A stretch of DNA of 64,000 bases from a virus (IMGVR_UViG_3300043812_000026), one strand, 5' to 3'; positions 4,108 through 64,000 are shown, numbered from the stretch's first letter. Notes: generated from the letters alone by a model not told the origin. Translations and numbers: made by a program.

Positions 4108-5044
4108 TTATGACTGTGAGCCAGTCGAAGAGCTAAGGTACAAAAACTCGATAGACTCACTAACTATCTGATTTGCTCTATAACTTGTGTTATATGACGA
4201 TGCACTGCATCCATAGAAAGCCTCGGCTACCATTTTAGTAACACTATCCATTACAGAAATAGTTAAAACGTCAGCTTGTAGAATATCCTCTCCCAGATGG
4301 GCTATATCCATTTGCTGAGAAGCAAGGTTATCTCGTACCATACGAAATCTTTCTAGTGTAAGAGAACCCGTATATTTGAGGTATACATGTTCACGTGGCA
4401 TACATTATATTAACTACTTATTTCTAAATAGATTAGACTATATCTTCCTCTTTATAAGAGGTTCTACATTACCCTAACTTAATAAGGACTTAATCGTTAG
4501 TCTTTTATTTTAGAACGGTTGGTCAACTCTATCCACTTCTGGATTTAGTCTTTCTTACTAGCTTATTTAATTCAGTTATTCAGCTTTACCCGTTTAGTAG
4601 AATTTTTCAATTAACATTACTGTTAACCTCCACTATGCTAGTTAATGGACCCGATTTCATATACCCCTTCGGTGCCGTAACTTCTATTAGCTGTCAAGCT
4701 TTGCGCACGTGCAATTAAATGGTTCTTTGCCATAATATAAATTCGGTTAGAGGTATTACAAAATTTATATTTATATTTTTATATAATTTTAGACTATATC
4801 TTACTCCAGATCTGGAGTCCTCTCTATTACACCCTAAGGCTTTTATATAATGAAAACATTATAAGTTTAGTCGTTAGTCATTTATCTTAGAACGGTTGGT
4901 CAACTCTACCCCTAGTAGATTACAGGGCTTAGTCTTTCTTACTAGCTTATTCTCTTTTATTACTACTATTTATTCAGCTTTACCCGTTTAAGAGAGGTTT
5001 TAAAACAGCTAATACCTAACCGTTTGATTTGCGACAGTCGCCAA
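4108..5044 (-). CDS. tail tube protein in three exons (5044-5019, 4758-4645, 4402-4108), 144 aa spliced
   Basis: Joined exons give MATVANQTVNTSNRIYIMAKNHLIARAQSLTANRSYGTEGVYEIGSIMPREHVYLKYTG..., matching Twort-like tail tube; RBS AAGGAG before TTG; 435 nt in frame. Confidence 0.9.
4403..4644 (-). mobile_element. ORF-less group I intron 2 of tail tube gene (242 nt)
   Basis: Exon ends in U, intron ends in G; P1 UCCAU/GUGGA; P10 GCAUA/UAUGC; AAGAUAUAGUCU element; core shared with the other two introns. Confidence 0.9.
4759..5018 (-). mobile_element. ORF-less group I intron 1 of tail tube gene (260 nt)
   Basis: P1 AAACGGU/GCUGUUU; P10 AGGUAUUA/UAAUACCU; terminal G; AAGAUAUAGUCU element. Confidence 0.9.
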
Positions 5045-5257: not shown

Positions 5258-5427
5258 GTATAGCACACAATAATTAAAATACAATAGCTAAGATAAAAAA
5301 AAAAAACAGGGTAAACCCTGCCAAGGAAAAACAAACAAAGAATTCAGATAAAAGTTTGAAACAGTTTCCTTACTGAATTAAGGAACATTCTTAGTATAGA
5401 ACATAGACCCCTAGTTGTCAACCTTTA

Positions 5428-5961
5428 TTAAAGATTATCTACATTATCTAAAGTTCTGTCTTTATCAAGATAAACAATCCTAGGGCTAATTGATATATCA
5501 GATACCCCAGATGGTAAGTCTTTCAACTTTCTAACAAAATCCTCAGCATCTTCTCTATAAGCAAAAACATCAGAACTAGTATAGGAACCATAGTCATCGT
5601 TATAGGTGTACTCAACAATGAAAACAACCGGACGATTAAAACAATTTACCCGCAGATGTCTACGAGGATCATCTTTATCTAAATCAGTACCTATGCGCTG
5701 TTGTAAACTCATCACCTTCTCCTTGTACTGATCAAAAAATTTTTCACTTTTTCGATCAATACTTGAAAAAGCGTTCCACAGCTTACTTATCTCATTTTTT
5801 ATTGAAGCTATATCATCAGAAGATTGTTTCTCAGGTAATTTAACCTTTTGAGGTTCCAACTCAACCTTAGGTTCTCGATTTATAGCAATCAAGCCTATAA
5901 TAACAGTAATAGAAATGCCAATAAGAATACCAATAACCAAGCTATATCCATTAATAACCAT
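5428..5961 (-). CDS. hypothetical membrane-anchored protein
   Basis: N-terminal hydrophobic helix followed by coiled-coil-like region. Confidence 0.75.
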   Translation of the reverse strand: MVINGYSLVIGILIGISITVIIGLIAINREPKVELEPQKVKLPEKQSSDDIASIKNEISKLWNAFSSIDRKSEKFFDQYKEKVMSLQQRIGTDLDKDDPRRHLRVNCFNRPVVFIVEYTYNDDYGSYTSSDVFAYREDAEDFVRKLKDLPSGVSDISISPRIVYLDKDRTLDNVDNL

Positions 5962-8881: not shown

Positions 8882-11800
8882 CTATTTCTTAGGCCTACCC
8901 CACCAAGTAGCAGTATCAGTACCGAAACCTTGTGAGTAAGGTTCTTCTGCAATATTTTCTCCAGCATTCATATCAATAACTTTAGTATCTCCACCGTGCC
9001 AATCTTCTTCAAGAATACCCATGTGAGGGTTAGCATCATTAACTACCATATCCCCAGCTTTTGCGTCTTTTGAGTCAATAGGCTCCAAAATAGATTTACA
9101 TGAAAACGTAGTAAATGGTGTATCACCAACCGAATAACCGCATGATTTAGCACAATACCAACTAAAAGAACTACAATCTGCATGACCATTTTCCTTCGGA
9201 CTACCGATAGACCCAAAGTCTGACCTATTAGGTTGCGAATAAGTCCAACCCTTTGTTTTAACCTGTTGAGCAAACTTAACTATATCGTTATTAGATGTTC
9301 CTCCACTATCTCCTCCACTATCTTTACTTGCATTGGAAATAGCAGTAGCAAGATTTTGCTCACCAAAGTAACCCCCAAGAAAACGGGTAAACTTGCCCTT
9401 AAAACTCCAAGGTTCAGTAAATCTACGGTAAAAGTCGCCTGTTTCAGATCTTAAAGGAACACCACGAGTAACATTCAATGTAACCTGTAAACCATTAGCA
9501 TAACTCCAGCTAGTAGTTACACCCTCACAGTAAAATTCCCACCAGACACCAGAAGGGTCATCATAAAACATTACCCGCTCACCAATCCAATCTACCATTG
9601 GTGTAGAAAGCGATCCTAAAGTAATCGTGCCAGAATAGAACTTAGCATTATCTGCGTACCAATCAAATAACTTCTGTGTATACCTAAGGAATAAGAAAGG
9701 TACAGATTGTTGACCACTATCTGGTGATCCATTAATACCATCATGTCCTTGGTCAAAAGGAACTGAATTCATAATCCGGTCATAATCAGCCTCACTAGGC
9801 TTACCGCCATTAGCTAAAGCGGACTGCACAATCTCCCAAGCTTGTTCTGGTCCAATTGTATAACCCATTTCGTCAATCAACTCACCAGCCGCTTTTTCAG
9901 GGTTTTTAGCCATCCGGTCATAACTCTTTAAGTATTTAGAATTCTTAGAGATAGCTGTATTAGTAGGGGTGTAATTGGGCATCATAACACTAAGGTAGCT
10001 AGTACGATTAAAATGATTACGCATCGTCCATAATGTATTAGCGTCTTCTTGACTAATTCCCAAGCCAGCAACCGAACGGGCAAAATCATAAGCATTCCCA
10101 GAAGCTTTAATCGCTTCATTTACAGCATTATACTGAGCAGACCCACCAGCTTCTTTAGGAATAGAAATATCTTCACCATTAGCCTTACGTCCACTTGTGT
10201 AATAAAAAGCGTCAACTACAGATGTGTAATAAGGGGCGTGGAGCATTGCTTCTTCTTGAGTCCAGCCTTTCATAGCTTCACTATCTGCATTGGTAGTTCC
10301 TGCTTGTAACTGTGACAACGGATCCTCTTGTTTATTACCATTAAAGTAATCAACTTGTACATTCATTAACTTATAACCATAACGGTGAATAAGATCTAAA
10401 TTAGTTAAGGGTGCCATATTCCCTGTAAATCCACCGTCATACTGATCTATCCCCATACCTTGTGTAGGCGTAAGCTTAAAAATCGAAGCTTGTTCTTGAT
10501 CATTGTTTTGGATATTAACACTCATAATATCACCGGGAGCAATCTCATTAACAGGTAAGCCCATCCAGTTTTCGGGATCGAACGGTGTAGGACGATAATT
10601 AAAAGTAGCCAATCCCCGATCGTGCGTCCAATACATTTCATTAAAAGGTTTAGCAGAAACGTCTTTAATAAACTGGAGAATAGAACCATTGTAATTTAAG
10701 AATGGATTGCTTGGGCCTGCGTCTGGGTAGGACTCATCTAAGTTTTCATAAATATAGAACTCCATTAAATTCTGGATAGGTAATTCCCCATCTTCTGATA
10801 CCTGCATAGGAATATTTAACCAACTAACTTGATTATTAGTTTCCGGATCATTATTCTTCCCATTCTGGTCTGTATCTGAATTCTGGTCTGAACCATCAGC
10901 AGTATTGCCGTCCTTATCAGGTAAAGAATCAAGATAAGCTTGATAGTCAGCTTGTGTCATTGGTTGTCCCATAAAGTCATTAACTACGCCTGCTTTAACC
11001 GGAGTAGCCCGCTCAGTAATATCTCGACCACCTTGACCATTTAAGTAATCATAGGTATTTACTCCACCTTGATTTTGTAAGACAAACCGATTGATAATCT
11101 GCTTAATAATATTAGCAGACGTATGTTGCTTAAAACCAATCCCTGTCTTTTCATCATCTGGGAGCAGTTGATAACCATTAAGGTTAGACTGTAAATCAGA
11201 AAAAGTAGACAACTGAATATTACTCATAATCTTAGCCATACCTTGACCTACAACCGTATAAGTTTCTTGCGCTCCATTGTAATTAGCATTACGAGTTAAA
11301 TTAGAAACTAAACCAGTATAAATACACTTATCAAATTGACGATACTGTTTGTCTGGTAAGATATAATCTACCCGAATTAAGTCATTAACAGCAAACAGTG
11401 AAGACCAGTCATGACTATTACCTAAAATCATAGTCAAGGTTGGAATATCATTTTGCATATCGTTTTGTACTTGAACTGAAATTAAATCAGCAATTAATTT
11501 ATCTTGTGTGTCATCTGGAATTTGATGAGATACAGAACGGGGAACTAAAGGATAAGTACGTGAAATAGTTGCTACCGTTACCTGTAAATAACCAGACGTT
11601 GAAATAGAACCATATTTAGCTATATCACCCGGCTTATGGTCTATATGCGTAGGATAACGAGGAGTAGGCTTTTGTATTAAATTCAAGGACTCCTGCATTA
11701 TTTGTTTATAGTTTTCATCAGCCTTTGAAATATCTCTATCGTCCCCGCCTTTAGAAGAACCAGACTTATGACCTTTATTCTTATAAGCGTCTGATACTCC

Positions 11801-11947
11801 ACCATAAGCACCTACATCTATATGTGATTTAATTTGTTTATGATCTAATGCTTGCCCAGCAGACTTAGAGTCTACATGGAAAGGTTTCTTCTTTTTACTT
11901 GCTACTTGTCGATAAGCACCAATATCTATTTTTGGCAATATTTTCAC
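8882..11947 (-). CDS. baseplate hub / tail lysin with C-terminal NlpC/P60-type peptidase
   Basis: Follows tape measure; PFNEMYW..RPTPFDPENW as in Twort-like tail lysins; C-terminal DCSSF..HMGI. Confidence 0.8.
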   Translation of the reverse strand: MKILPKIDIGAYRQVASKKKKPFHVDSKSAGQALDHKQIKSHIDVGAYGGVSDAYKNKGHKSGSSKGGDDRDISKADENYKQIMQESLNLIQKPTPRYPTHIDHKPGDIAKYGSISTSGYLQVTVATISRTYPLVPRSVSHQIPDDTQDKLIADLISVQVQNDMQNDIPTLTMILGNSHDWSSLFAVNDLIRVDYILPDKQYRQFDKCIYTGLVSNLTRNANYNGAQETYTVVGQGMAKIMSNIQLSTFSDLQSNLNGYQLLPDDEKTGIGFKQHTSANIIKQIINRFVLQNQGGVNTYDYLNGQGGRDITERATPVKAGVVNDFMGQPMTQADYQAYLDSLPDKDGNTADGSDQNSDTDQNGKNNDPETNNQVSWLNIPMQVSEDGELPIQNLMEFYIYENLDESYPDAGPSNPFLNYNGSILQFIKDVSAKPFNEMYWTHDRGLATFNYRPTPFDPENWMGLPVNEIAPGDIMSVNIQNNDQEQASIFKLTPTQGMGIDQYDGGFTGNMAPLTNLDLIHRYGYKLMNVQVDYFNGNKQEDPLSQLQAGTTNADSEAMKGWTQEEAMLHAPYYTSVVDAFYYTSGRKANGEDISIPKEAGGSAQYNAVNEAIKASGNAYDFARSVAGLGISQEDANTLWTMRNHFNRTSYLSVMMPNYTPTNTAISKNSKYLKSYDRMAKNPEKAAGELIDEMGYTIGPEQAWEIVQSALANGGKPSEADYDRIMNSVPFDQGHDGINGSPDSGQQSVPFLFLRYTQKLFDWYADNAKFYSGTITLGSLSTPMVDWIGERVMFYDDPSGVWWEFYCEGVTTSWSYANGLQVTLNVTRGVPLRSETGDFYRRFTEPWSFKGKFTRFLGGYFGEQNLATAISNASKDSGGDSGGTSNNDIVKFAQQVKTKGWTYSQPNRSDFGSIGSPKENGHADCSSFSWYCAKSCGYSVGDTPFTTFSCKSILEPIDSKDAKAGDMVVNDANPHMGILEEDWHGGDTKVIDMNAGENIAEEPYSQGFGTDTATWWGRPKK

Positions 11948-11973: not shown

Positions 11974-12010
11974 AAAATCCTCTATGCGCGTCTGAAACAT
12001 AGAGGATTTT
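11974..12010 (-). terminator. intrinsic terminator
   Basis: AAAATCCTCTATG-loop-CATAGAGGATTTT hairpin. Confidence 0.75.
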
Positions 12011-12019
12011 AGGGTGTGT

Positions 12020-12205
12020 ATTAACAAATGTTCAACTAAATTATGGACTACACACCAATTAAAAATTAGTGGTTTCTGGGAACACTTAGTAGTATTTAGG
12101 ATTTTACAAGTGTATTCACTATACCTAACTTACAGAACTAAGCTATCTTACCATGGCTAGTCCCTAACCTTAAATACATTTAGCAACTTTGGTTTTCAGT
12201 TGCTG
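12020..12205 (-). ncRNA. stand-alone TnpB omegaRNA-like locus
   Basis: 12074-12173 is 95/100 identical to the reverse complement of 60253-60352 (3' of tnpB); followed by a right-end-like hairpin, putative guide and terminator; TGGACT-17-TATAAT upstream. Confidence 0.7.
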
Positions 12206-12223
12206 TTTATATTATAACTTCAT

Positions 12224-15200
12224 TTAGACTAGAAGTCCAGAAGTTTCGTTAGCAAAGAATGTTTGCTGATTACTCATTGCTTGTTGGTTATCATATTGAC
12301 TTAGCATTTCTCTTACTTTATTAGCTACTGTTTGAGCTAATGTATCTGGATCATCAGTACCACCATTAATTGTAAGGTTAATATTATAACTTGGATTAAT
12401 AGTAGTTGATTTTCCACCAGACTCAGAAACTCCCGGATTAACTACCTTTTTACCAAAGATACCAGCTAAGTCGTCTAAAATAGAAAGCCCACTAAAGTAA
12501 TGACCAGCATTTAATGGTACATAAGCTTCTGTTCCCGCTTCACCATAAACATCACTACCATTATTAGTAGTTGGGTGGTCTGTGATTAAAGGACTGCCGG
12601 AAGCATATTGACGAATACCACCTACAGCATATTGCTTAGCAAATCTTTCCATTCCTCCAGCATATTCAGCAGGAGAAGCAGTAAAGTAACCTTTACTATG
12701 AAGCTGGTTAGCCCAGTCATTAACAGACTTAATACTACTATTAATACCCATCTTCTGAAGGGTAGAAGCATAAGCATTAGCAAAGTCGTCTAAGCTATCA
12801 AAGTCTGCATAATTACCACTACCGTCTGGCTGATGAGACCCAGCTTTAGCACCTTTCTGACCAGCATAAACAATACCACCATAGTTGTTTTTACCAGCCA
12901 TATGAGTCCCACCACCAGTTTCATGCATCAATTGTGCATAAACTAGTTTAGGATCAACACCAAGCTTCTTACCAATAGCTTTTGCAACGCTCCGAATAGC
13001 CTTTTCTCCCTCACCAGAAGTACCAGATATACCCGAGTCGTCACCATCTTTATTAGAACTAGAATCTCCACCGTTCTTAATAGACTTAGCAGATTGAACT
13101 ACTCGCATAGCATGATCAAGCATTTTATCATAGCCACGTAAAATACGCCATGCTTCTGATTTCTCACTATCCTTCTTTGAGGAAGCTTTAGCTTTACCCC
13201 CAAAGAAATCGTCCATTAAGCCTAAGCCAGCAACGCCAAGAGCAACCCCCGGTAAGAATCGCTTACCATTCTTTAGAATACCTCTTAGTACGCCACCAGA
13301 CTTATTATACTTACTTGCAGTCTTACGAGCGTCTCTAAGTGATTGTCCTTTAGCTTTATTAATAGCTTTATCCTTAGACTTACCTATCTTACCACCAAGG
13401 AAACCACCAAACTTATCACCTAACCAGCCACCAGCTACACTACCAGCAACCGCACCAACCGCAGTACCAGCACCGGGGAAAATTGAACCTATCAGTCCAC
13501 CAACAACCCCACCAGCAACACTACCAGCAGACGACCCTAAGCTAGAACCGACAGCTTTTCTACGAGCTTTAGTACCTTTCTTAGTAGTTGCAACAGAGGT
13601 AGCTAGATCTAAACCACCAAAGACTAAATCACCAATACCCGGCAACCCGGCTTTAGCACCACGAACTAAACCTCTTAACTTACTAGACTTTAAGACACTG
13701 GAAGCGGTAGCTCTAATACCAGAGCGAGAAACTGACTTAGCACCTGTCTTAACAGCTTCTTCTCCAGCTTTAGCAGTTGCTTTTTCAGCTCCCTTTTCTA
13801 CAGGTGATTTACCACCTTTAAAGATACGTCCTAAGATACCAGACCCTCCAGCACCTCCAGAACCACCTTTACCTCTTAGCTTATCAAGAGCATAGATACT
13901 CATAAGATTTCCAGCACCAGCACCAAATGCACTAGCGACACCAGAAACAAATGGAGATAACCCACCACCAGCTTTATAAGCCTTAGCAATAATACCACGT
14001 AAACCGTCTAAAGCTTGACTAGCTTTCATAGCAGAATCAGCTAATGCAGAATTATACTTTTGAAGTTGTGAAGCTCCTGTCTTATCATAGTCCTGATCTG
14101 CTGTCCCGCCTTCTTTACTTGCACTAGATGATTTTTCTAACTTATCTATATGCTTCTTATCTAACTTACCGGAATCTGCTAATTGAATCCACTTTTCAAT
14201 AGTCTCTGCCGGAACACCCGTCGCCTGATATAGATTAGCGGAAGCAACCCTGCGACTACCAAAATCTTTTTCAGCATTTTGGAGAATTCCTTTCATCTTC
14301 CATGGTTTCTTCTGGAACTCTTGCATATCAAAAACCATATTAGCAGAACCCTCTACCCCTGTATAGCGACTAGGATTAGACTGAGCAAAAAGCTGTCGCA
14401 TCATTGGGTTATTAACATTACCTAATCCTTGAGCTAACTGCATAGTATTTTGAGCGCCTTGTGTACCTTGGAATTGTGCCCCACCACTAGCAATTGCACC
14501 TTGGAAGCCCGCTAAGTTCTTCTCATCACGAGCAGTAAGACCCTGATTACTTGCATTCTGGATTAACATAGATAATCCTTGTTGCTGTTCTGTTGCCTTA
14601 GCACTCATACCAGAATTGATGATAGAGTTAGTAATTGCATTACCGACACTACTCATCTGACTAGAATTTAAATTAGCACTATTACCGACAGTCTGTTCTA
14701 GCCCTAAAGTACTCTGTGCATTAGCTCCTGTGATACGAGACTGTCTAGCCCACGTCTGAGCAACACCAGCAACATCTCTAATACTTCCCACATTACCAGT
14801 AGTAGAAGTATAAGCATTGGCAAACTGACCCATTTCTGCGCCATTATAACCATATTTATAACCGTAGTCGCCTAGAGTATTAAGAACTTCACCATCTCTA
14901 CCACCATTAGCATATGCAGTAGACTTAATATCGTCAAAACTAGAAAGTCTTAAACTATTTCCTTGAGCATAAGCACTAGCAATAGAAGCGCCCCCAGCAG
15001 CGATAGCACCACGTAAAATAGTATATTTACGCTTATTAAGCTGACCCATAAAAGAATTAGGGTCATCACCAATAGTTACCCCTTGAGTATCATCAAGGCG
15101 ATCATTAAACGACTCTGAATTCTTTTCGGCAGTTCGTAATTCTTCTTCCTGCTTCTTAAATTGCTCATTAACCTTTTCTAGGTGCTTAACTTGTTCGTCT

Positions 15201-15970
15201 AAAGCTCTAGCATAACGAACCTGCTCAGTAGTTGCGCCCGGTGCAGAAGCAACATTATTAGCTTCTTTTGCTTGAGTTTGTAAATTTTGATAATAACTAG
15301 CAAAACGAGCAATATCACCAGTAGGAGAATTAAACCGATCTCGTTGTTCTTGCAAACGGCTTTGAATAGACTGAGACGAGGCTTTGTACTGGTGATAACG
15401 ATTATATGAAATATAACCAGACTTCCTACCAACTTCTAAGTTACCCATTTCACGTTTAAGCGAACTAGCTAAATTATGAATATCAGATCGGCTTTCTCTA
15501 GCTAAACTTTCATAATGTAAGTTTTGTTGACTAAAGTCTCCCTGTTCACCACGAATAGTAGCACTCCCGTCTATAAAAGCACGAGAAGTAGTTGTACGAG
15601 CATTAAAGATAGAATCAAGCTTAGTACTATTATTACCAGATCTTAACTCTCTTAAGCTACTAACAACTAGATCTAACTTAGGAGCTAAAGTATTAATGCT
15701 TTCTTCTAGCTTAGAACCATTCTGAGTTGCCTTAGCTTGATTAAGAGCATTATCTAAAGCAGATTTAACTTCGTCTAAACGACCAAAGCCATTTTGAACC
15801 CCAGCTAACTGCTTATTACTAATCTGACCGTTATTATCTTGTACAGTACTAAATACCCGATTAATCTTCTGTTGGGTAGAATTAACTAGATCCTCAATTT
15901 CTCGAAGACTCGCTTTGGCGGGGTCAACATCAGCCGTAACCTTAATATTTGTATCTTCTTGCTTGCTCAC
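12224..15970 (-). CDS. tape measure protein with C-terminal glucosaminidase-like (GH73-type) hydrolase
   Basis: 1248 aa, coiled-coil and Gly/Ala-rich segments; AQLMHETG..NNYGGI..YADFDSL..GYFT. Confidence 0.8.
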   Translation of the reverse strand: MSKQEDTNIKVTADVDPAKASLREIEDLVNSTQQKINRVFSTVQDNNGQISNKQLAGVQNGFGRLDEVKSALDNALNQAKATQNGSKLEESINTLAPKLDLVVSSLRELRSGNNSTKLDSIFNARTTTSRAFIDGSATIRGEQGDFSQQNLHYESLARESRSDIHNLASSLKREMGNLEVGRKSGYISYNRYHQYKASSQSIQSRLQEQRDRFNSPTGDIARFASYYQNLQTQAKEANNVASAPGATTEQVRYARALDEQVKHLEKVNEQFKKQEEELRTAEKNSESFNDRLDDTQGVTIGDDPNSFMGQLNKRKYTILRGAIAAGGASIASAYAQGNSLRLSSFDDIKSTAYANGGRDGEVLNTLGDYGYKYGYNGAEMGQFANAYTSTTGNVGSIRDVAGVAQTWARQSRITGANAQSTLGLEQTVGNSANLNSSQMSSVGNAITNSIINSGMSAKATEQQQGLSMLIQNASNQGLTARDEKNLAGFQGAIASGGAQFQGTQGAQNTMQLAQGLGNVNNPMMRQLFAQSNPSRYTGVEGSANMVFDMQEFQKKPWKMKGILQNAEKDFGSRRVASANLYQATGVPAETIEKWIQLADSGKLDKKHIDKLEKSSSASKEGGTADQDYDKTGASQLQKYNSALADSAMKASQALDGLRGIIAKAYKAGGGLSPFVSGVASAFGAGAGNLMSIYALDKLRGKGGSGGAGGSGILGRIFKGGKSPVEKGAEKATAKAGEEAVKTGAKSVSRSGIRATASSVLKSSKLRGLVRGAKAGLPGIGDLVFGGLDLATSVATTKKGTKARRKAVGSSLGSSAGSVAGGVVGGLIGSIFPGAGTAVGAVAGSVAGGWLGDKFGGFLGGKIGKSKDKAINKAKGQSLRDARKTASKYNKSGGVLRGILKNGKRFLPGVALGVAGLGLMDDFFGGKAKASSKKDSEKSEAWRILRGYDKMLDHAMRVVQSAKSIKNGGDSSSNKDGDDSGISGTSGEGEKAIRSVAKAIGKKLGVDPKLVYAQLMHETGGGTHMAGKNNYGGIVYAGQKGAKAGSHQPDGSGNYADFDSLDDFANAYASTLQKMGINSSIKSVNDWANQLHSKGYFTASPAEYAGGMERFAKQYAVGGIRQYASGSPLITDHPTTNNGSDVYGEAGTEAYVPLNAGHYFSGLSILDDLAGIFGKKVVNPGVSESGGKSTTINPSYNINLTINGGTDDPDTLAQTVANKVREMLSQYDNQQAMSNQQTFFANETSGLLV

Positions 15971-36121: not shown

Positions 36122-39100
36122 TTAGAACTCCGTTTCGTTCTTAATCTCATATTCACGTTGTATATCAGTCTGTTCTGGGGTAAAGATGTCATTATCAAGA
36201 TAATCAATCTGTGTAGACTTTCTACGCTTCATAGCGTCCTCTTTCATTAACTTATCAAGCCCCACCATTGCATAAACACTTGCTTGTGCTGAATGATCAC
36301 CATCTTTACGAGTAATAATTTGAACTTGTTGTATAGTGTGGGTTTGCTTATCTTCTCTATCATCAGTACGGATAATAATATTCTTCCAATGAGTAATAAA
36401 TAACTTAATCATTGGGTCATTTTGAGATCCTTGGTAGAAATGAATATCACCCCGTCTCAAATTACCCATCATAATTTCATTTTGTGCTAACTTATCAATT
36501 AAAACAGAATTATCAGAGTCATTAAAATGAGCTACAAAATCCCCCTTAGAAAGAGCAGAATTTACTCGTACCCCATAAACACGTTGAATTCCATAATAAG
36601 CCATTAATTTTTGATTATAGGAACCAGAATCAACTTAGAAATACATTTCTGTACACAACCTAAGCTAGATTATATCTTAATGATACAAAATAGTATCATC
36701 ACTACTATTGTTAATTATCTTAACTATATATGTCTTAATATCCTTATAAGTATTAATTCTATAAGGTATTCTAATAAGTTTTATACCTGCTTTCTCACAA
36801 AAAGAGTCCTTAATTTTATCATGTATTATACCAGTTTTACTATAAAATAAACTTTTATTTTTATAGTGTTGAACACCATCATACTCAATACATAAATTGT
36901 AATCAGGTAAATAAAAGTCAAAAGGTAGCATCCGTTTATCTATACAGCCACTAAAAGTTTTTTGATAATCATACTTAATTCCTAAGGATTCTAATATCTC
37001 TAATATTAGAACTTCACCTCTTGAACTGTTATGACAAAAGTAACAACCTATATGCTTATCAACTATCTGTCTAAGAGATAAATATATAATATGATTACAC
37101 TTTTTATGCTTTATTCTCATTTTAGTATGATCATCTTTATAATTATCTATTCTTATATACGTATTTCCAAGAATATCAAGTATTAGTTGATCTACCTTTT
37201 TATTATCATATGTTTTATGTATCTTTCTTAGATACCTAGCACACTTAGGACATCTTCTACCTTGTATAAATTTTGTAATATTTACTCTATAAGTAAATTT
37301 TCCTCCATCTATACAATGATTATGAGTAATTACAATTTTATGCTTAGTGTCTATTTGTTCAGAATCTATTGTATATTCATCACCAACTAACTTTTGAACC
37401 TTCTGTCTATAGTATTGAGAACCCTTCATACGTCCCTGCCCCTGTCTTCTATGACCACATCTGGGACAACCACAGGAAGAGTTTAATAACTGGTTAGGAG
37501 TAACCTCCCACTCCCCTTTAGAACCATAGTTACAAACTAAACACTGATGTTTTATTTTTACTAAGATACCTTTATAGCTCTCCAGAGGAATAATACTAGG
37601 TTTCTTTTGTTTTAATTCTGAAATATATTGCTTATTAGTACGTTTTGCCAAAGTTTACTTTCACCTCACTTATAGTATAGCAAAGTATAAGTATTCTGAG
37701 GCAAATATAATAGTAAATAATTAAAGCTTAATCGTTAGTCATTTAATTTAGAACGGTTGGTCAACTCTATCCCTAATTACTAGGATTTAGTCTTTCTTAC
37801 TAGCTTATTCTTTATTGTAATTATTATTTAGCTTTACCCGTTTAAGTAGTTTATTTTTCTAAATATTACTATTTAGTGGAGCTATCTGTTAACCCCGAGT
37901 CTGGAAGAATTAAGTCTGGTTGATAAAGATTTAAGTGTCTAACAACTAAATTAAGATCTTCTTCAATATGTTCAACACCTGTAGACTTAGGTACACGGTA
38001 TATATCCATTAAATCAATCCTACCATTAGGACGCATACCTAAAGTAACAATATGATGATAATGTTGTCCCCAGTCAATACCAGAAACCACATACTTATAA
38101 TTATCACGATTATCTGGATGTTTATAATTATTATCTATATGGTAAAGTACATCTTCTTCTCTAAAAGTTGTACCAGAGTCTTGATAAGGCATTCCAAGAT
38201 TGTAATTATAAAAATACTGTTTCGAAGGGCTTCGTAGTTCCTCTTGCTTTAAATGGTCTGCCGTAATCCACGTAGCATTCATTTGTGAAATACTAAAGCC
38301 AGTACGTCTTCCCTTACCCGGCTTCATAGCTACCCATCTACCATTATACCATCTATCAATTGGACGTTTGCATTTTTGGCATACGAACTGAAAAGTACCC
38401 GGTTGAACAACTTTACCTATAGTATCAATACCATCTTTATGGACCTGCTTAATATTTTTATTATAATCCATAACTTGTTCGTAACCACAATGTTGACACT
38501 TATGTACCCAATACCGTTGATCAGACTCCATAAACAATTTGTGAATCCCATACCCTTCAGTTGTTGGGGTAGACCAACGTCTTAAGAGTTTATACTTTGA
38601 AGACTCCATAGACTGAATAGCTGATTGTTCTGCTAAAGGTGATATGCGATCGTACTCATCAAGAGCCGTCACATCAATGTGTAGACCCTCTAGGGAAGCC
38701 CCATTAGAAGCAGTTCTGAATGTTAATTCACTATCCCTAATTTTCATACCCTTCATAGTCATCGTTTTAGGGTCTTTTATTAAAGATCTATAATAACCAT
38801 TTTCAAATTCTGGTCTAATACGTTGTTTATAAAACGTGTCCAACTGACGATACGTAGGAAAGGCATATAAACCAGAAGCACGATCATATGAATGTGTGTC
38901 TAGCCAATAAATCATCATCTCTATACCGACTTCGCTTAGTCCCAGTTGTCGACTTTTTATCACACAAATATCTTGATCATTAGCACTGTTGACTATACCT
39001 ACCTGCCAAGGACGATGACCTAAAGCGTGGGTTGTATCGTAATCTGGTACATTAAAAGTTAATGGCTTACCATTTATCGTATGGTGTTGAAGTAAATAGT

Positions 39101-40479: not shown

Positions 40480-41938
40480 CCTGCTATATAAAATGTGAAC
40501 AAACATAATCCTATATGCTAAGTAATTATGTTTGAGAAAGAAATATAGCTTTTCCTTTCTTTATTTTATTTACTGTCGTCAACGCTGGTATTCTCATATC
40601 CTAACTAGAGGGTAATGGCATTGACCAACTATTACAGCTTAAGGGCTTAGCCAGCCCCAATTATATTTTTTTCTTCTTTACGCTAAAGCCAAAAGATTTA
40701 AGACTGCATTTTGGTCTCGATCCATTACCACACCGCATTCATAACAAATATATTCATTGTGTTTAGTACCATGTTTTTGATTACCATCGAGACCAATTTT
40801 ATCTTTGCCTTGCTTGATGTGACCACATGCAGAACAGCGTTGTGTTGATGGATAGAATTGATCAGCTAAGATTAATTCTTTACCATACCATTCACACTTA
40901 TAGGTTAATATTTGTCTAAAATAACCAAACAGTGATCTCTGCATACCTTTAGAAGCTACATGAGTCATCTGCATCTGTTTGACTGCTAAATCTTCAATGA
41001 CAGTCTGGTCATAACTATCAACCAGCTTAGTCGTAAACTTCTGCAAAAGATCATGTTGGATATTAACTACTTTACGATAATCACGTTGCAACTTGGCTCT
41101 CGTTTTAACGTAATTATTACTTTGTGTAGCTAACTTACCATTAACCTTTCTCTTACGAGCTAGCATTTTTTGATAATGCCTGATCCGCTTATAAAGCTTT
41201 TGCAATTTAGCAGGTAAGACGTTAAGCTTCCCATCAGTATAGTTAAAGTGACCTACATTTAGATCTACTGCCGTCTTATTACCAGTTTTAGGTTTCTTAG
41301 CTATTTCAACTTCAAAAGGTAGGCTAGCCCAGTATTTACCATTTTCACGATAAATTGAAACAACTTTTAAATCACCATCTAAAGCCTTAGCACCTTTAAA
41401 ACTAATATCATACCAAGTTTTAACTCTGTGTGGTTTATCAAGTCTTAACTTACCATTAACAATCTTAGCTCTATCAGTTTTAAATCCTTGTCTAGGAGCT
41501 TTCTTAGATTTAAATCTAGGCTTTCCCCAATCAGGTAATGCTTTATTAAAGAACTTCTTCCAAGCATTACCTAAATCAGAAATTGCTAAGTATAAACACC
41601 GTGACGATAAACTATATTGCCAGTCAGCTTTATTAGAGGATAACTCCTTACGGACTCTGCTTTCATTAGGGATAGGATTGTCTTTCTTGTTCAAGTTATG
41701 AGCTTCATACATATCATTCCACAGCTCTAACCCTTGATTCCAACAATATCTACGATAATCGCATAGATCATCAAGAACTTTCTTCATTGTTTGGTTGGGA
41801 TAGAGTCTTACCTTTTGAACTCGAATCATTATTTTCACCACCTTGCATTGACATAATATCTACCTCACATTTTATCTTTCTGTAGATATTATATCATAGG
41901 TGATCGTATTTTAATATCCTTTAATTAACAGTTAATCA
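40480..41938 (-). mobile_element. TnpB-only IS607-like element (no tnpA)
   Basis: GGTGAT at both junctions (40476-40481, 41935-41940); structured ~200 nt 3' region ending TATAGCAGG. Confidence 0.6.
40678..41841 (-). CDS. tnpB: RNA-guided endonuclease TnpB
   Basis: RLYPN HTH; RuvC AVDLN, VIEDL, DRDQNA; CSACG/CYECG zinc finger. Confidence 0.9.
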   Translation of the reverse strand: MVKIMIRVQKVRLYPNQTMKKVLDDLCDYRRYCWNQGLELWNDMYEAHNLNKKDNPIPNESRVRKELSSNKADWQYSLSSRCLYLAISDLGNAWKKFFNKALPDWGKPRFKSKKAPRQGFKTDRAKIVNGKLRLDKPHRVKTWYDISFKGAKALDGDLKVVSIYRENGKYWASLPFEVEIAKKPKTGNKTAVDLNVGHFNYTDGKLNVLPAKLQKLYKRIRHYQKMLARKRKVNGKLATQSNNYVKTRAKLQRDYRKVVNIQHDLLQKFTTKLVDSYDQTVIEDLAVKQMQMTHVASKGMQRSLFGYFRQILTYKCEWYGKELILADQFYPSTQRCSACGHIKQGKDKIGLDGNQKHGTKHNEYICYECGVVMDRDQNAVLNLLALA

Positions 41939-47056: not shown

Positions 47057-47211
47057 TAGACCCTTGCATTCCCCTTTCTTATCACATGGTTTCGCTAATT
47101 GTAATATAGGGGATTAAACATAAGCAAAATAAAAAACCTTTCCTGCATTATAACAAGAAAGGATGTAAACAAAATTATAAGTATAGTAACAATTAACTAA
47201 AATATCAATAA

Positions 47212-54736: not shown

Positions 54737-54960
54737 AGCACCAGCTAAAGCGAATTTAACATTTTTGTTCTTAGATAATAAAATAAACCATCTATCCTTT
54801 CATTTACATACGAATTCTTTGTTTGTTCATATAAAATTCATATTTGATTACACTCTTACTATAGCACGCACCAGTTACAGAACAACTACAGAAATATTAC
54901 AACAATATTACAAAATTAAGACAAAATAAAAAGACCTGTCAATTAGACAAGTCCTAATTA

Positions 54961-58941: not shown

Positions 58942-60403
58942 CAAGGATAATTGGCGAGAATACCCCCACTTTGATAAGTGGGAGATGAATCGCCTTTTTG
59001 TTATAATAAAGAGTTTGCAAATCTTGCCTTGACTTCTTCTAAGTTTTGAAGTTATACTTCGCTTATAGAAGAAAAGAGGTGAAATGAATGTTAAAGGGAG
59101 TAAAATTACGCTTATATCCTAATGCTAAGCAACGGGATCAGTTAACTCAAATGTTTGGTAATGCTAGATTCATCTGGAACATTATGCTAGACATGGCTAA
59201 AGCTAGATATAAGAATAATCCTAGTAGTCAATTTGTAAATGAATATGGAATGAATTACTTGGTAAAGCAATTAAAACAAGAATATCCATTCTTGAAAGAA
59301 AGTGAGGCTAGAAGTTTACAAATATCTAATCATTACTTAAACCAATCCTTTAAGATGTTATTTAAACACCAAGGTGGCTATCCTAGGTTTAAAAGTCGTA
59401 AAGCTACTAAACAATCTTATACTGGTGATGGTAGTCGTGGTGGTTGTCATATTATAGCTAAACGTTATATAAGACTACCTAAACTAGGTTCTATCAAGAC
59501 TAGTAAGACTAGCCAATTAGAAGGACTAAAGATTAAAAGATATACAGTTACCTTAGATCCCACTGGTAGATATTATTTATCTTTAATGGTTGATGATCCT
59601 AATATCCAACCTTTAGAACCTACTGGAGCTGTTGTAGGGATAGATATGGGAGTAGCTGATCTAGCTATTACCAGTGATGGTTATAAATACCCTAAGTTCA
59701 ATACTCCTTACTTAGATCATAAGGTAGTAGAAGCTCAATCTAAGTTTAGTAAACGTAAACAAAGAGCTTTAGTTAGAGTAAGACAATGGAATCATAATCA
59801 TAAAGATACTAAGATGGAGTTAGAAGATTATTCTAATTGGCAGAAAGCACAAAAACAGAAAGCCAGATACCAAGCTAAAATAGCTAATAAGCGTAAAGAC
59901 TACTTACATAAGATAACAACTGAATTAGTAAAAAGTTATGATGTGATTGTAATAGAGGATTTGAAAACCAAAAATCTTTTAAAGAATCATCATTTAGCTA
60001 AATCAATTACTAATAACAGTTGGTACTTATTTAGAGAAATGTTGGAGTATAAGTGCAAATGGTATGGTAAACAATTAGTAGTTGTTAAGCCCAATTACAC
60101 TTCACAGATATGCTCTAATTGTGGTTACCACTCTGGTAAGAAACCACTAGATGTTAGAGAGTGGACTTGTCCTAATTGTGGTACTCACCATGATCGAGAT
60201 ATTAATGCTTCAATTAACATTCTAAATAGGGGATTAAAAGAGTTAAAGAAAATTAAGGCTAGGGACTAGCCATGGTAAAAGAGCTTAGTTCTGTAAGTTA
60301 GGTTTAGTGAATACACTTGTAAGATCCTAAATACTACTAAGTGTTCCCAGAATCCCCACTTCAAGTATTAAACTAAAAGTTTAGCTAAGTGGGAGAAGTT
60401 CAA
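58942..60403 (+). mobile_element. IS200/IS605-family TnpB-only element (IS1341-like)
   Basis: Subterminal CCCACTT..AAGTGGG hairpins at both ends; TTTAT 5' of left end; right end GTTCAA. Confidence 0.8.
59088..60269 (+). CDS. tnpB: RNA-guided endonuclease TnpB
   Basis: KLRLYPN; RuvC GIDMG, VIEDL, DRDINA; CSNCG/CPNCG. Confidence 0.92.
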   Translation: MLKGVKLRLYPNAKQRDQLTQMFGNARFIWNIMLDMAKARYKNNPSSQFVNEYGMNYLVKQLKQEYPFLKESEARSLQISNHYLNQSFKMLFKHQGGYPRFKSRKATKQSYTGDGSRGGCHIIAKRYIRLPKLGSIKTSKTSQLEGLKIKRYTVTLDPTGRYYLSLMVDDPNIQPLEPTGAVVGIDMGVADLAITSDGYKYPKFNTPYLDHKVVEAQSKFSKRKQRALVRVRQWNHNHKDTKMELEDYSNWQKAQKQKARYQAKIANKRKDYLHKITTELVKSYDVIVIEDLKTKNLLKNHHLAKSITNNSWYLFREMLEYKCKWYGKQLVVVKPNYTSQICSNCGYHSGKKPLDVREWTCPNCGTHHDRDINASINILNRGLKELKKIKARD

Positions 60404-60438
60404 GGGCGTGTATCAAGAATTTGAAGGGAGAAATTAAT

Positions 60439-63052: not shown

Positions 63053-63106
63053 GGTCTCGAACGATGGTCTCCCGTGAGATTGAGAGTTCGAGTCTCTCTA
63101 GGACCG
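63053..63106 (+). ncRNA. minimal tRNA-like element
   Basis: T-arm GAGAG-UUCGAGU-CUCUC, imperfect acceptor GGUCU/GGACC, no D-arm. Confidence 0.4.
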
Positions 63107-63257
63107 TACCCCGTGTTCATTAGGGCGCTTTATTTTCGTCTTCGGACTCCTTCTAGTTACAGGTCTAGTAGGTAAAAGATATACACAATAGGAAGTCAAC
63201 CTGTATGAGTGTTATATCTGTAAGTAAAGTATTAGGGTGCAAGTCCCTACGGGGTGG
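63107..63257 (+). ncRNA. tRNA-like-domain RNA (~150 nt)
   Basis: UACCCCG/CGGGGUG acceptor, UAGGG-UGCAAGU-CCCUA T-arm, stem GCUUUAUUU/AAGUAAAGU enclosing an insert. Confidence 0.5.
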
Positions 63258-63465
63258 TAGGAGTGTATCTTCCGTCCTACCATTATGGTATATGTAAACA
63301 AGAACCGTGTTTAGGCTTTTATTACGAGAATTAAAAGCCCTTTTCTTCTCAGTTCTTGAAGTAAGAACGAGATAGGGGTTAGTTAACTGTTACTCACCCT
63401 ATCTAAAATAATAACGAGTATAAATGCAATTGCTGGGATATACTGTGAATGTTCTAAGCAGTATA

Positions 63466-63524
63466 AGGGTAGTAGTTCAATGGTAGATCATGCAAGGACG
63501 GGGGTTCGATTCCTTCCTACCCTA
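63466..63524 (+). ncRNA. tRNA mimic lacking the anticodon arm (59 nt)
   Basis: AGGGUAG/CUACCCU acceptor, D-arm, 10-nt linker, GGGGG-UUCGAUU-CCUUC T-arm. Confidence 0.65.
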
Positions 63525-63598
63525 TTTTCTTTATTACGTATTTAGTTCTCCCCTAACTATGGTATAATTAATACATATCAAAGTTAGGGGAGTTTTAA

Positions 63599-64000
63599 TT
63601 GATCAAAGTTTTTGCAATTATTTTACTGCTAGTTTGGCTGATTAGTTTTGGTTTATATGATTTAAAGTCGCTTTTTAAAAGAATTGCTTATCCATTTAAA
63701 CAGCTTGATGAAGAAGATCATGATAATTTCGGTATCTTAGATGATACTTACAATTTATCGACTTTCAAGGGTCGAGTATACTTGTTATTAACTAGCTGGG
63801 TACTTGAAATTATAGTGTTCTTTCTCTTATGGGGTTTAGCTCATGTAGCAGGAATCGGACAAGAATTAAAAGGTACTTTGTTATTATTCTTAACAGTTGG
63901 ATGCCTTTCAGATCTGAATACTAATTATTATCGAGTTAATTACTATTTAAATGGTACTAAAGATTATATAGGTTGTTATCTAGGAATTATAATCGGCTTA
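63599..64000 (+). CDS. multi-pass membrane protein (partial)
   Basis: TTG after RBS AGGGGAG; open to window end; several hydrophobic segments. Confidence 0.7.
   Translation, partial: MIKVFAIILLLVWLISFGLYDLKSLFKRIAYPFKQLDEEDHDNFGILDDTYNLSTFKGRVYLLLTSWVLEIIVFFLLWGLAHVAGIGQELKGTLLLFLTVGCLSDLNTNYYRVNYYLNGTKDYIGCYLGIIIGL

Follow-up and report, generated by a model that had tools for sequence, protein, structure and literature searches.

Positions 12043-12213 (minus strand) of IMGVR_UViG_3300043812_000026, a stretch of viral DNA of 64,000 nt referred to here as the window, are occupied by a protein-less mini-element of 171 nt that carries an omegaRNA scaffold and that is missing from the same place in four related phage contigs. 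This is probably an orphan guide scaffold used in trans by TnpB, for which the window has an intact gene at 59088-60269. The interpretation that we favour, with reasonable confidence, is that of a non-autonomous, stand-alone omegaRNA (PATE-like) element by means of which the TnpB of the phage, acting in trans, would cut, or home into, the empty alleles of co-infecting relatives.

The relationship of the mini-element to the tnpB locus is a close one. By direct count, 95 of the 100 nucleotides at 12074-12173 are identical to the reverse complement of 60253-60352, and a repeat search of the window returned inverted arms of 112 nt (91% identity) at 12071-12182 and 60244-60355. An earlier reading of the window, made from the sequence alone (the sequence-only reading), had described an orphan repeat with no tnpB and no insertion sequence left end beside it. 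The first part of this description is borne out, as there is no open reading frame (ORF) inside the 171 nt, no nuclease gene adjoins the 12.1-kb copy and the neighbours are structural genes. The mini-element sits in a spacer of 276 nt between two large minus-strand genes of this class, 12224-15970, which has a glucosaminidase domain (Pfam), and 8882-11947, and is co-oriented with the surrounding operon. The second part had to be amended: although no tnpB adjoins the copy, a short 5' end of its own is present, 42 nt in length and including a hairpin at 12182-12204.

Further evidence that the mini-element is a unit came from the relatives. The spacer is empty in all four of those compared (G001, G002, G004 and contig 3300043781_000007), the window having 171 extra bases, and the flanks show 91-97% identity to the window across the four (95-96% in G001, the nearest relative, 97% in G004 and 91% in G002, the last being a complete genome of 152,691 bp with terminal repeats). 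At the site of the mini-element the relatives read ...GAAGTTAT/AATTTAGTTG... (a slash marks the junction here and below) and the alignment with G001 runs ...CTAAATGAAGTTATAATTTAGTTGAACATTTG..., the repeat being skipped. The absence of the copy from four of four relatives identifies it as a discrete insertion. On the minus strand it starts AATATAAACAGC and ends GTGTAGTCCAT. The presence of ATAAT at both ends leaves a 5-nt ambiguity in the boundaries, and the register adopted is the one in which the right end lines up with its homologue in the full-length tnpB element, which stops unambiguously at 60403. A similar situation is found at the full-length tnpB element of G003, where the 5-nt sequence at the junctions is AGTAA; both repeats may represent microhomology or target duplication.

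Within the mini-element the omegaRNA scaffold takes up 129 nt (12043-12171, minus strand), with the right end ...GTAGTCCAT, and keeps all pairs of the consensus structure described below. The left-end (5') hairpin, AGCAACT-GAAAACCAA-AGTTGCT (12182-12204, minus strand; -8.9 kcal/mol with flanks), is unique in the window and without counterpart in its full-length tnpB element, and is identical in mini-elements of G003 and G006. The guide-adjacent terminal hairpin, CACTAATT-TTT-AATTGGTG (12053-12071, minus strand), was seen in alignments to differ from that of the full-length copy of the window and to resemble closely those of the tnpB elements of G002:94955 and G005. The 5' hairpin (AGCAACT/AGTTGCT) and the 3' hairpin of the mini-element are unlike each other.

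The fold was examined in an alignment of 11 scaffolds, six of them adjoining tnpB and five orphan. The initial consensus had 27 pairs, of which six showed compensatory double changes; a long-range helix brought it to 31 pairs, in which 99.1% of cells are paired and seven pairs are changed on both sides. The covariation score was higher than that of any shuffled control, and pairing did not exceed 48% in slid controls. The long-range, pseudoknot-like helix joins 5' GGACUA to 3' UAGUCC (12158-12163 with 12046-12051 in the window; alignment columns 9-14 with 143-148) and covaries, reading GAUCUA and UAGAUC in G002 and G005. This helix competes with the first hairpin, and the transposon-end motif forms part of its 3' strand. 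Among the variant pairs, several occur in orphan copies, and no pair is broken in the window copy. The guide-adjacent hairpin varies in sequence among the copies, one being present in each. A single-sequence fold (z = -0.97) is uninformative alone, and covariation was needed. Neither the orphan nor its parent scaffold was matched by any Rfam family.

A candidate trans-acting nuclease is encoded in the window itself. The ISDra2-like tnpB at 59088-60269 (plus strand) is apparently intact and its product of 393 aa has the Pfam domains HTH_OrfB_IS605, OrfB_IS605 and Cas12f1-like_TNB. This protein aligns end to end with ISDra2 TnpB (PDB 8bf8/8exa; E 3e-56), and the RuvC motifs GIDMG, VIEDL and HDRDINA align opposite the catalytic D, E and D motifs of ISDra2, in agreement with the earlier claim that D-E-D is retained. 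The enzyme is apparently active and presumably compatible with the orphan scaffold. The cognate omegaRNA scaffold of the full-length element (60244-60403, plus strand) overlaps the 3' end of tnpB and its right end, ..GAAGTTCAA, stops at 60403. The junction reads ..GAAGTTCAA/GGGCGTGTATC, with GGGCGTG following, so that the cognate guide starts at 60404; homology to G002, G003 and G005 resumes exactly at this position, which makes the right end unambiguous. The left end of the full-length element (58945-59087, plus strand) is homologous to the left ends of G002:143925, G006 and LP65 and contains the hairpin CCCACTT-TGAT-AAGTGGG, which has the same stem as the right-end hairpin of this element. 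The motif GTTAT/AATAAAGAG at 59000-59013 was considered as the left boundary and rejected, as comparison with G002:143925, G006 and LP65 showed it to be internal and placed the left end near 58945.

Comparison of junctions across the element family points to YTAT as the transposon-adjacent motif (TAM). The TAM of ISDra2 is TTGAT. YTAT was found at eight of eight junctions, the right ends reading TYCAN instead. The full-length tnpB element of G003 has the junction GCTAT/AGTAAG relative to the empty window site near 54829, and the orphan at G003:36165 has TTTAT/TATAATAA relative to the empty G002 allele. The remaining junctions read GCTAT at the orphan G003:16830, TTTAT at the outer end in G006, ACTAT at the G004 orphan and ATTAT at G002:143925, and in G005 and G002 the sequence that follows the 60403 right end of the window is preceded by CCTAT. 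At the mini-element the corresponding motif is GTTAT (12214-12218, minus strand), which is native and lies directly 5' of the insertion; the TTTAT of the sequence-only reading was close, but is not what stands at this locus. At the filled locus itself TCCAT stands where the TAM would be, and the third base from the junction (T versus C) would spare the mini-element's own locus from recognition.

The sequence-only reading had further credited the element with its own promoter, a new guide and its own terminator. All three do exist as sequence, but the promoter-like site, the guide and the terminator are each present in the empty spacers and are therefore native phage sequence, lying outside the mini-element. 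The promoter-like TGGACT-17-TATAAT (12211-12239, minus strand; 10 of 12 positions to consensus) overlaps the last codons of the gene at 12224-15970, and its -10 box overlaps the TAM. In this AT-rich region three promoter-like matches were found where 2.6 would be expected by chance, which is not significant alone. The bases that had been noted as similar to the tnpB promoter (TGAAGTTATA) are native DNA and no part of the element. The intrinsic-terminator-like hairpin (11974-12010, minus strand; -18.3 kcal/mol, followed by the U-rich tail UUUUGAUUU) lies between the two structural genes and is kept in relatives, with one position a wobble pair in G001 and G002; a simple terminator scan skipped it owing to its loop of 9-11 nt. 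The predicted guide, AATTTAGTTGAACATTTGTT (12023-12042, minus strand), consists of native sequence that follows the right end on its 3' side and is unchanged in the empty spacer of relatives. It is not a selected sequence but whatever DNA stood 3' of the insertion point. The idea of a minimal RNA-guided system survives in part, in that an orphan, structurally intact scaffold shares a genome with a presumably compatible, apparently active TnpB.

The same native flank identifies a target. In the empty alleles of G001 and contig 3300043781_000007, GTTAT is followed by a match to the guide at 20 of 20 positions. Next to GTTAT in the other two empty alleles the match falls to 17/20 in G004 (mismatches at positions 5, 7 and 18) and 16/20 in G002 (5, 7, 8 and 18). 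Three differences in 20 in the G004 target compare with about 5% divergence overall; this excess is suggestive only. Elsewhere in the window the guide finds only matches with three mismatches, at chance frequency, and a metagenome scan for TAM plus guide gave 21 matches to a 19-mer, none of which extends past the 19-mer and all of which are attributable to chance. Of the targets that had been proposed, host DNA, a competitor phage and the empty allele of this locus, only the last is supported, the window and metagenome scans having given no host target and no unrelated competitor.

From these findings the following sequence of events may be proposed, in which transcription, processing, loading in trans, cleavage and the first arrival at the site are steps that we infer. 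A short 5' end with one hairpin, joined to a complete scaffold of the phage's ISDra2-like (IS1341-type, tnpB-only) family, would have entered a late-gene spacer 3' of GTTAT. The mini-element would be transcribed by read-through or from the native promoter; transcription is expected because it is co-oriented with the operon and lies behind a native -10 box. The transcript would then be shortened, by cutting or trimming, to the scaffold and some 16-20 nt of its flank, after which the TnpB encoded at 59088-60269 would be loaded with it. As the flank would serve as the guide, the complex would recognise GTTAT followed by AATTTAGTTGAACATTTGTT, a site that corresponds to the uninterrupted spacer of sister phages and not to the element's own locus. 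In a mixed infection the rival allele would be cut, and either the element would be copied in by recombination (homing) or a penalty would be imposed on the rival genome.

The mini-element is one of a family. Copies in relatives were found by pattern scans of viral contigs and by searches of the matching records, and in these scans the scaffold was confined to LP65 and a small set of phage contigs. At least four further protein-less copies are present at other loci in related phage contigs. Two of these share the 5' end and hairpin of the window mini-element: that at G003:16830 lies 19 nt downstream of the right end of another tnpB element, and that at G006:7660 lies within a larger insertion of 284 nt. 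The other two, at G004:25003 and G003:36165, are scaffold-only insertions of about 133 nt, essentially without a left end and placed right after TTGACA-17-TATACT-AT; their exact boundaries are uncertain because the window and G002 empty alleles differ near the left junction. Three of the family loci (those of the G004, G006 and G003:16830 copies) are empty in the window. Outside this group, a 27-nt scaffold pattern gave no match in 185,579 bacterial species genomes, providing no host source of the family, and the single match of an 18-mer pattern in these genomes, in a Pyrinomonadaceae metagenome-assembled genome, is at chance level. GenBank phages yielded no close relative of the locus, the only matches being the tnpB of LP65 (74-82%) and a lysin match in LfeInf.

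Several of the omegaRNA scaffolds of relatives (in G004, G003 and G002) are preceded, at a distance of 8-10 nt, by a consensus promoter (TTGACA-17-TATACT or TAATAT), and the predicted TAM overlaps the -10 boxes of such promoters. For G002 and G005 this promoter lies within the element itself, after the stop codon of tnpB and before the scaffold. The empty sites of the window that correspond to the G004, G006 and G003 elements are at 5392-5440 (minus strand), 47198-47205 and 54829-54855; at two of them the last base of the TAM is changed (TATACTAA for TATACTAT and TTTAG for TTTAT) and the start of the target is altered, and these may be escape or repair-scar alleles.

How such elements reach their sites is a separate matter. 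A Y1 transposase (PF01797) was found neither in G002-G006 nor among 20 window ORFs of 106-210 aa, and the matching left and right hairpins, served by a Y1 TnpA, that mark an IS200/IS605-type mini-element were not found here. There is no reverse transcriptase in G002-G004, which weakens the idea of RNA-templated insertion. The mini-element may have come by way of a host TnpA, by recombination or homing out of a carrier phage, or by something new. A separate reading would be that the phage elements spread without any transposase, by a TnpB- or omegaRNA-dependent insertion that also captures a promoter, as opposed to TnpA peel-and-paste followed by decay. We hold this to be a long shot. It is prompted by family members without a usable left end, namely the scaffold-only 133-nt insertions and a tnpB copy with a left end of about 30 nt, which still adjoin YTAT and downstream of which the sequence continues as in relatives without the insertion; the continuation is exact for G003:36165 and for the tnpB copy of G003, but no more than approximate for G004:25003. 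YTAT in turn coincides in part with native -10 boxes (TATAAT, TATACTAT). The window alleles CTAA and TTTAG at two loci that are filled in relatives, together with the mismatches at guide positions 5-8 in the G004 and G002 alleles of the mini-element locus, could reflect escape from RNA-guided homing.

A number of points weigh against a stand-alone element that works with the TnpB of the window. The promoter match at 12211-12239 is no better than chance, the predicted YTAT TAM is derived from junction comparison and the ATAAT repeat leaves room for a target duplication, which may have occurred at the mini-element. Compatibility with the window TnpB is assumed, given that the terminal hairpin is unlike that of the window's own tnpB copy. 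The 5' and 3' hairpins are unlike, and no Y1 transposase that might have inserted the element was found among the small ORFs of the window or in the complete related genome. Finally, as one phage lineage only has an insertion at this place, purifying selection on the window copy cannot be shown. The copy may instead be an inert hitch-hiker, a dead fragment of a tnpB element that arrived by recombination or gene conversion, is unused by TnpB and is neutral and decaying. Such a fragment would account for the restriction to one lineage at this locus, for the lack of a transposase in G002-G006, for the chance-level promoter match and for the mosaic nature of the copy, whose core is like one tnpB copy and whose terminal hairpin is like another. 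It accords poorly with a scaffold that is complete and has all consensus pairs intact, with the compensatory changes in orphan copies elsewhere, which neutral decay would not keep, with boundaries that fall exactly at the junction of TAM and target and with the existence of at least five protein-less copies at different loci. We consider this explanation unlikely, though the likeliest of the rivals.

The two other explanations that were weighed accept that the RNA has a function. The phage may have domesticated it as an extra guide that would direct TnpB against host DNA or an unrelated competitor, a role that would be in keeping with the intact TnpB in the same genome and with the statement that stand-alone omegaRNAs 'provide for targeting additional sites' (PMC10691335). 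However, the guide is the unchanged native spacer of the empty allele, its other matches, in the window and in the metagenome scan, are those expected by chance, and the scaffold family is absent from the 185,579 bacterial species genomes save for the one chance-level 18-mer match. Nor does the locus resemble a TranC/Cas12-type multi-guide locus, with a repeat-spacer array or a guide differing from the ancestral flank, as there is a single copy with a native guide; domestication of this kind appears improbable. Still less probable is a structured spacer RNA independent of TnpB, one whose fold would serve the late operon in cis, between the lysin-like gene and the gene that follows, by way of processing, stabilisation or attenuation. 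The position of the insert inside a co-oriented operon, between stop codon and terminator, would suit such a role, as would the placement of several family members directly behind native promoters, but close relatives manage without an insert at the same spacer and the conserved features are those of the omegaRNA and not of the flanking genes. The stand-alone omegaRNA element thus remains the interpretation that we favour.

The surroundings of the full-length element and other parts of the window were also described. The element at 58945-60403 stands in place of a coding stretch of 452 bp found in G002 and G005, with YTAT at both junctions (TTTAT/CAA on the left and CCTAT/GGGCGTG on the right). 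At this locus G003 has instead a gene of about 1.2 kb with repeated zinc-ribbon-like motifs, probably a homing endonuclease; the position has the look of an insertion hot spot for selfish elements. The window has another tnpB, from a separate lineage (387 aa; 40678-41841, minus strand), immediately downstream of which, at 40579-40637, Rfam recognises a Transposase-1 RNA (RF03014, 62 bits); this tnpB has only a 48-nt patch of 81% identity in common with the first. A 59-nt tRNA match at 63466-63524 (plus strand) was given by Rfam and not by ARAGORN. Sequence resembling a tRNA directly adjoins a tnpB element of G002 and G005, and the 3' flank of this element has its homologue at 63058-63600 of the window, some 400 nt upstream of what Rfam matched; the guide of this element may extend into a tRNA gene. 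Three copies of a repeat of about 110 nt (families D13 and D15) lie in ORF-poor stretches of the window, at 4477-4972 and 37715-37830.

These phages provide a natural test set, in which near-identical genomes carry between them a nuclease gene, a gene-less guide element, sisters with an exact TAM and target and sisters with mismatches at guide positions 5, 7 and 8. They would allow a direct test, in a phage of lactic acid bacteria, of whether a parasite of a parasite that has no nuclease homes, or excludes alleles, under RNA guidance. For an ISDra2-like TnpB they further supply YTAT as a candidate TAM, together with a compact scaffold whose fold has covariation support.

Stand-alone omegaRNAs without an effector or transposase have been described as mobilised, as present in genomes with effector loci and as shown to work in trans, with their role unknown (PMC10691335). 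The mini-element resembles these RNAs of OMEGA systems (Altae-Tran et al. 2021, summarised in PMC10691335) in being mobilised without effector or transposase, in sharing a genome with a presumably compatible TnpB and in having a guide that would be defined by its flank. It differs in residing in a lytic-type phage and not in a bacterial chromosome, and in having natural filled and empty alleles with the exact TAM and target in sister phages. PATE-like elements, a second point of comparison, 'often encode omegaRNAs', on which TnpB has to act in trans (Meers et al. 2023, bioRxiv 10.1101/2023.03.14.532601). Those of the IS200/IS605 kind in Geobacillus stearothermophilus (bioRxiv 10.1101/2023.03.14.532601) are likewise protein-less, have transposon ends, encode an omegaRNA, need TnpB in trans and insert 3' of a TAM. 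They share end hairpins with a resident TnpA that mobilises them, whereas the hairpins of the mini-element differ and no Y1 TnpA accompanies it (among the small ORFs of the window and in the complete related genome), and some of its relatives are scaffold-only insertions of 133 nt, essentially without a left end.

The likeness to ISDra2 TnpB-omegaRNA (PDB 8bf8, 8exa and 8h1j) and to IS1341-type tnpB-only elements lies in the nuclease, which aligns over its whole length with D-E-D kept, in the full-length omegaRNA, which overlaps the 3' end of tnpB and stops at the right end, and in a T-rich TAM ending in AT. The mini-element is unlike these in having no gene, and its predicted TAM is YTAT. TnpB-driven, TnpA-independent 'non-restorative homing' into co-resident plasmids or phages has been described (PMC13565253), and the free-standing homing endonuclease genes of phages (intronless homing and marker exclusion; PMC13565253) are comparable in that the mini-element is predicted to have a co-infecting empty allele cut and to be copied in, in a region full of selfish insertions. 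In this case, unlike theirs, recognition would be by RNA and the mobile unit has no nuclease gene. On all testable features save transposase-matched ends the mini-element appears to fit the stand-alone omegaRNA or PATE-like kind. This kind is already known and no new kind of system is described here; the mini-element is a clear natural example of it in a Lactobacillus-type phage.

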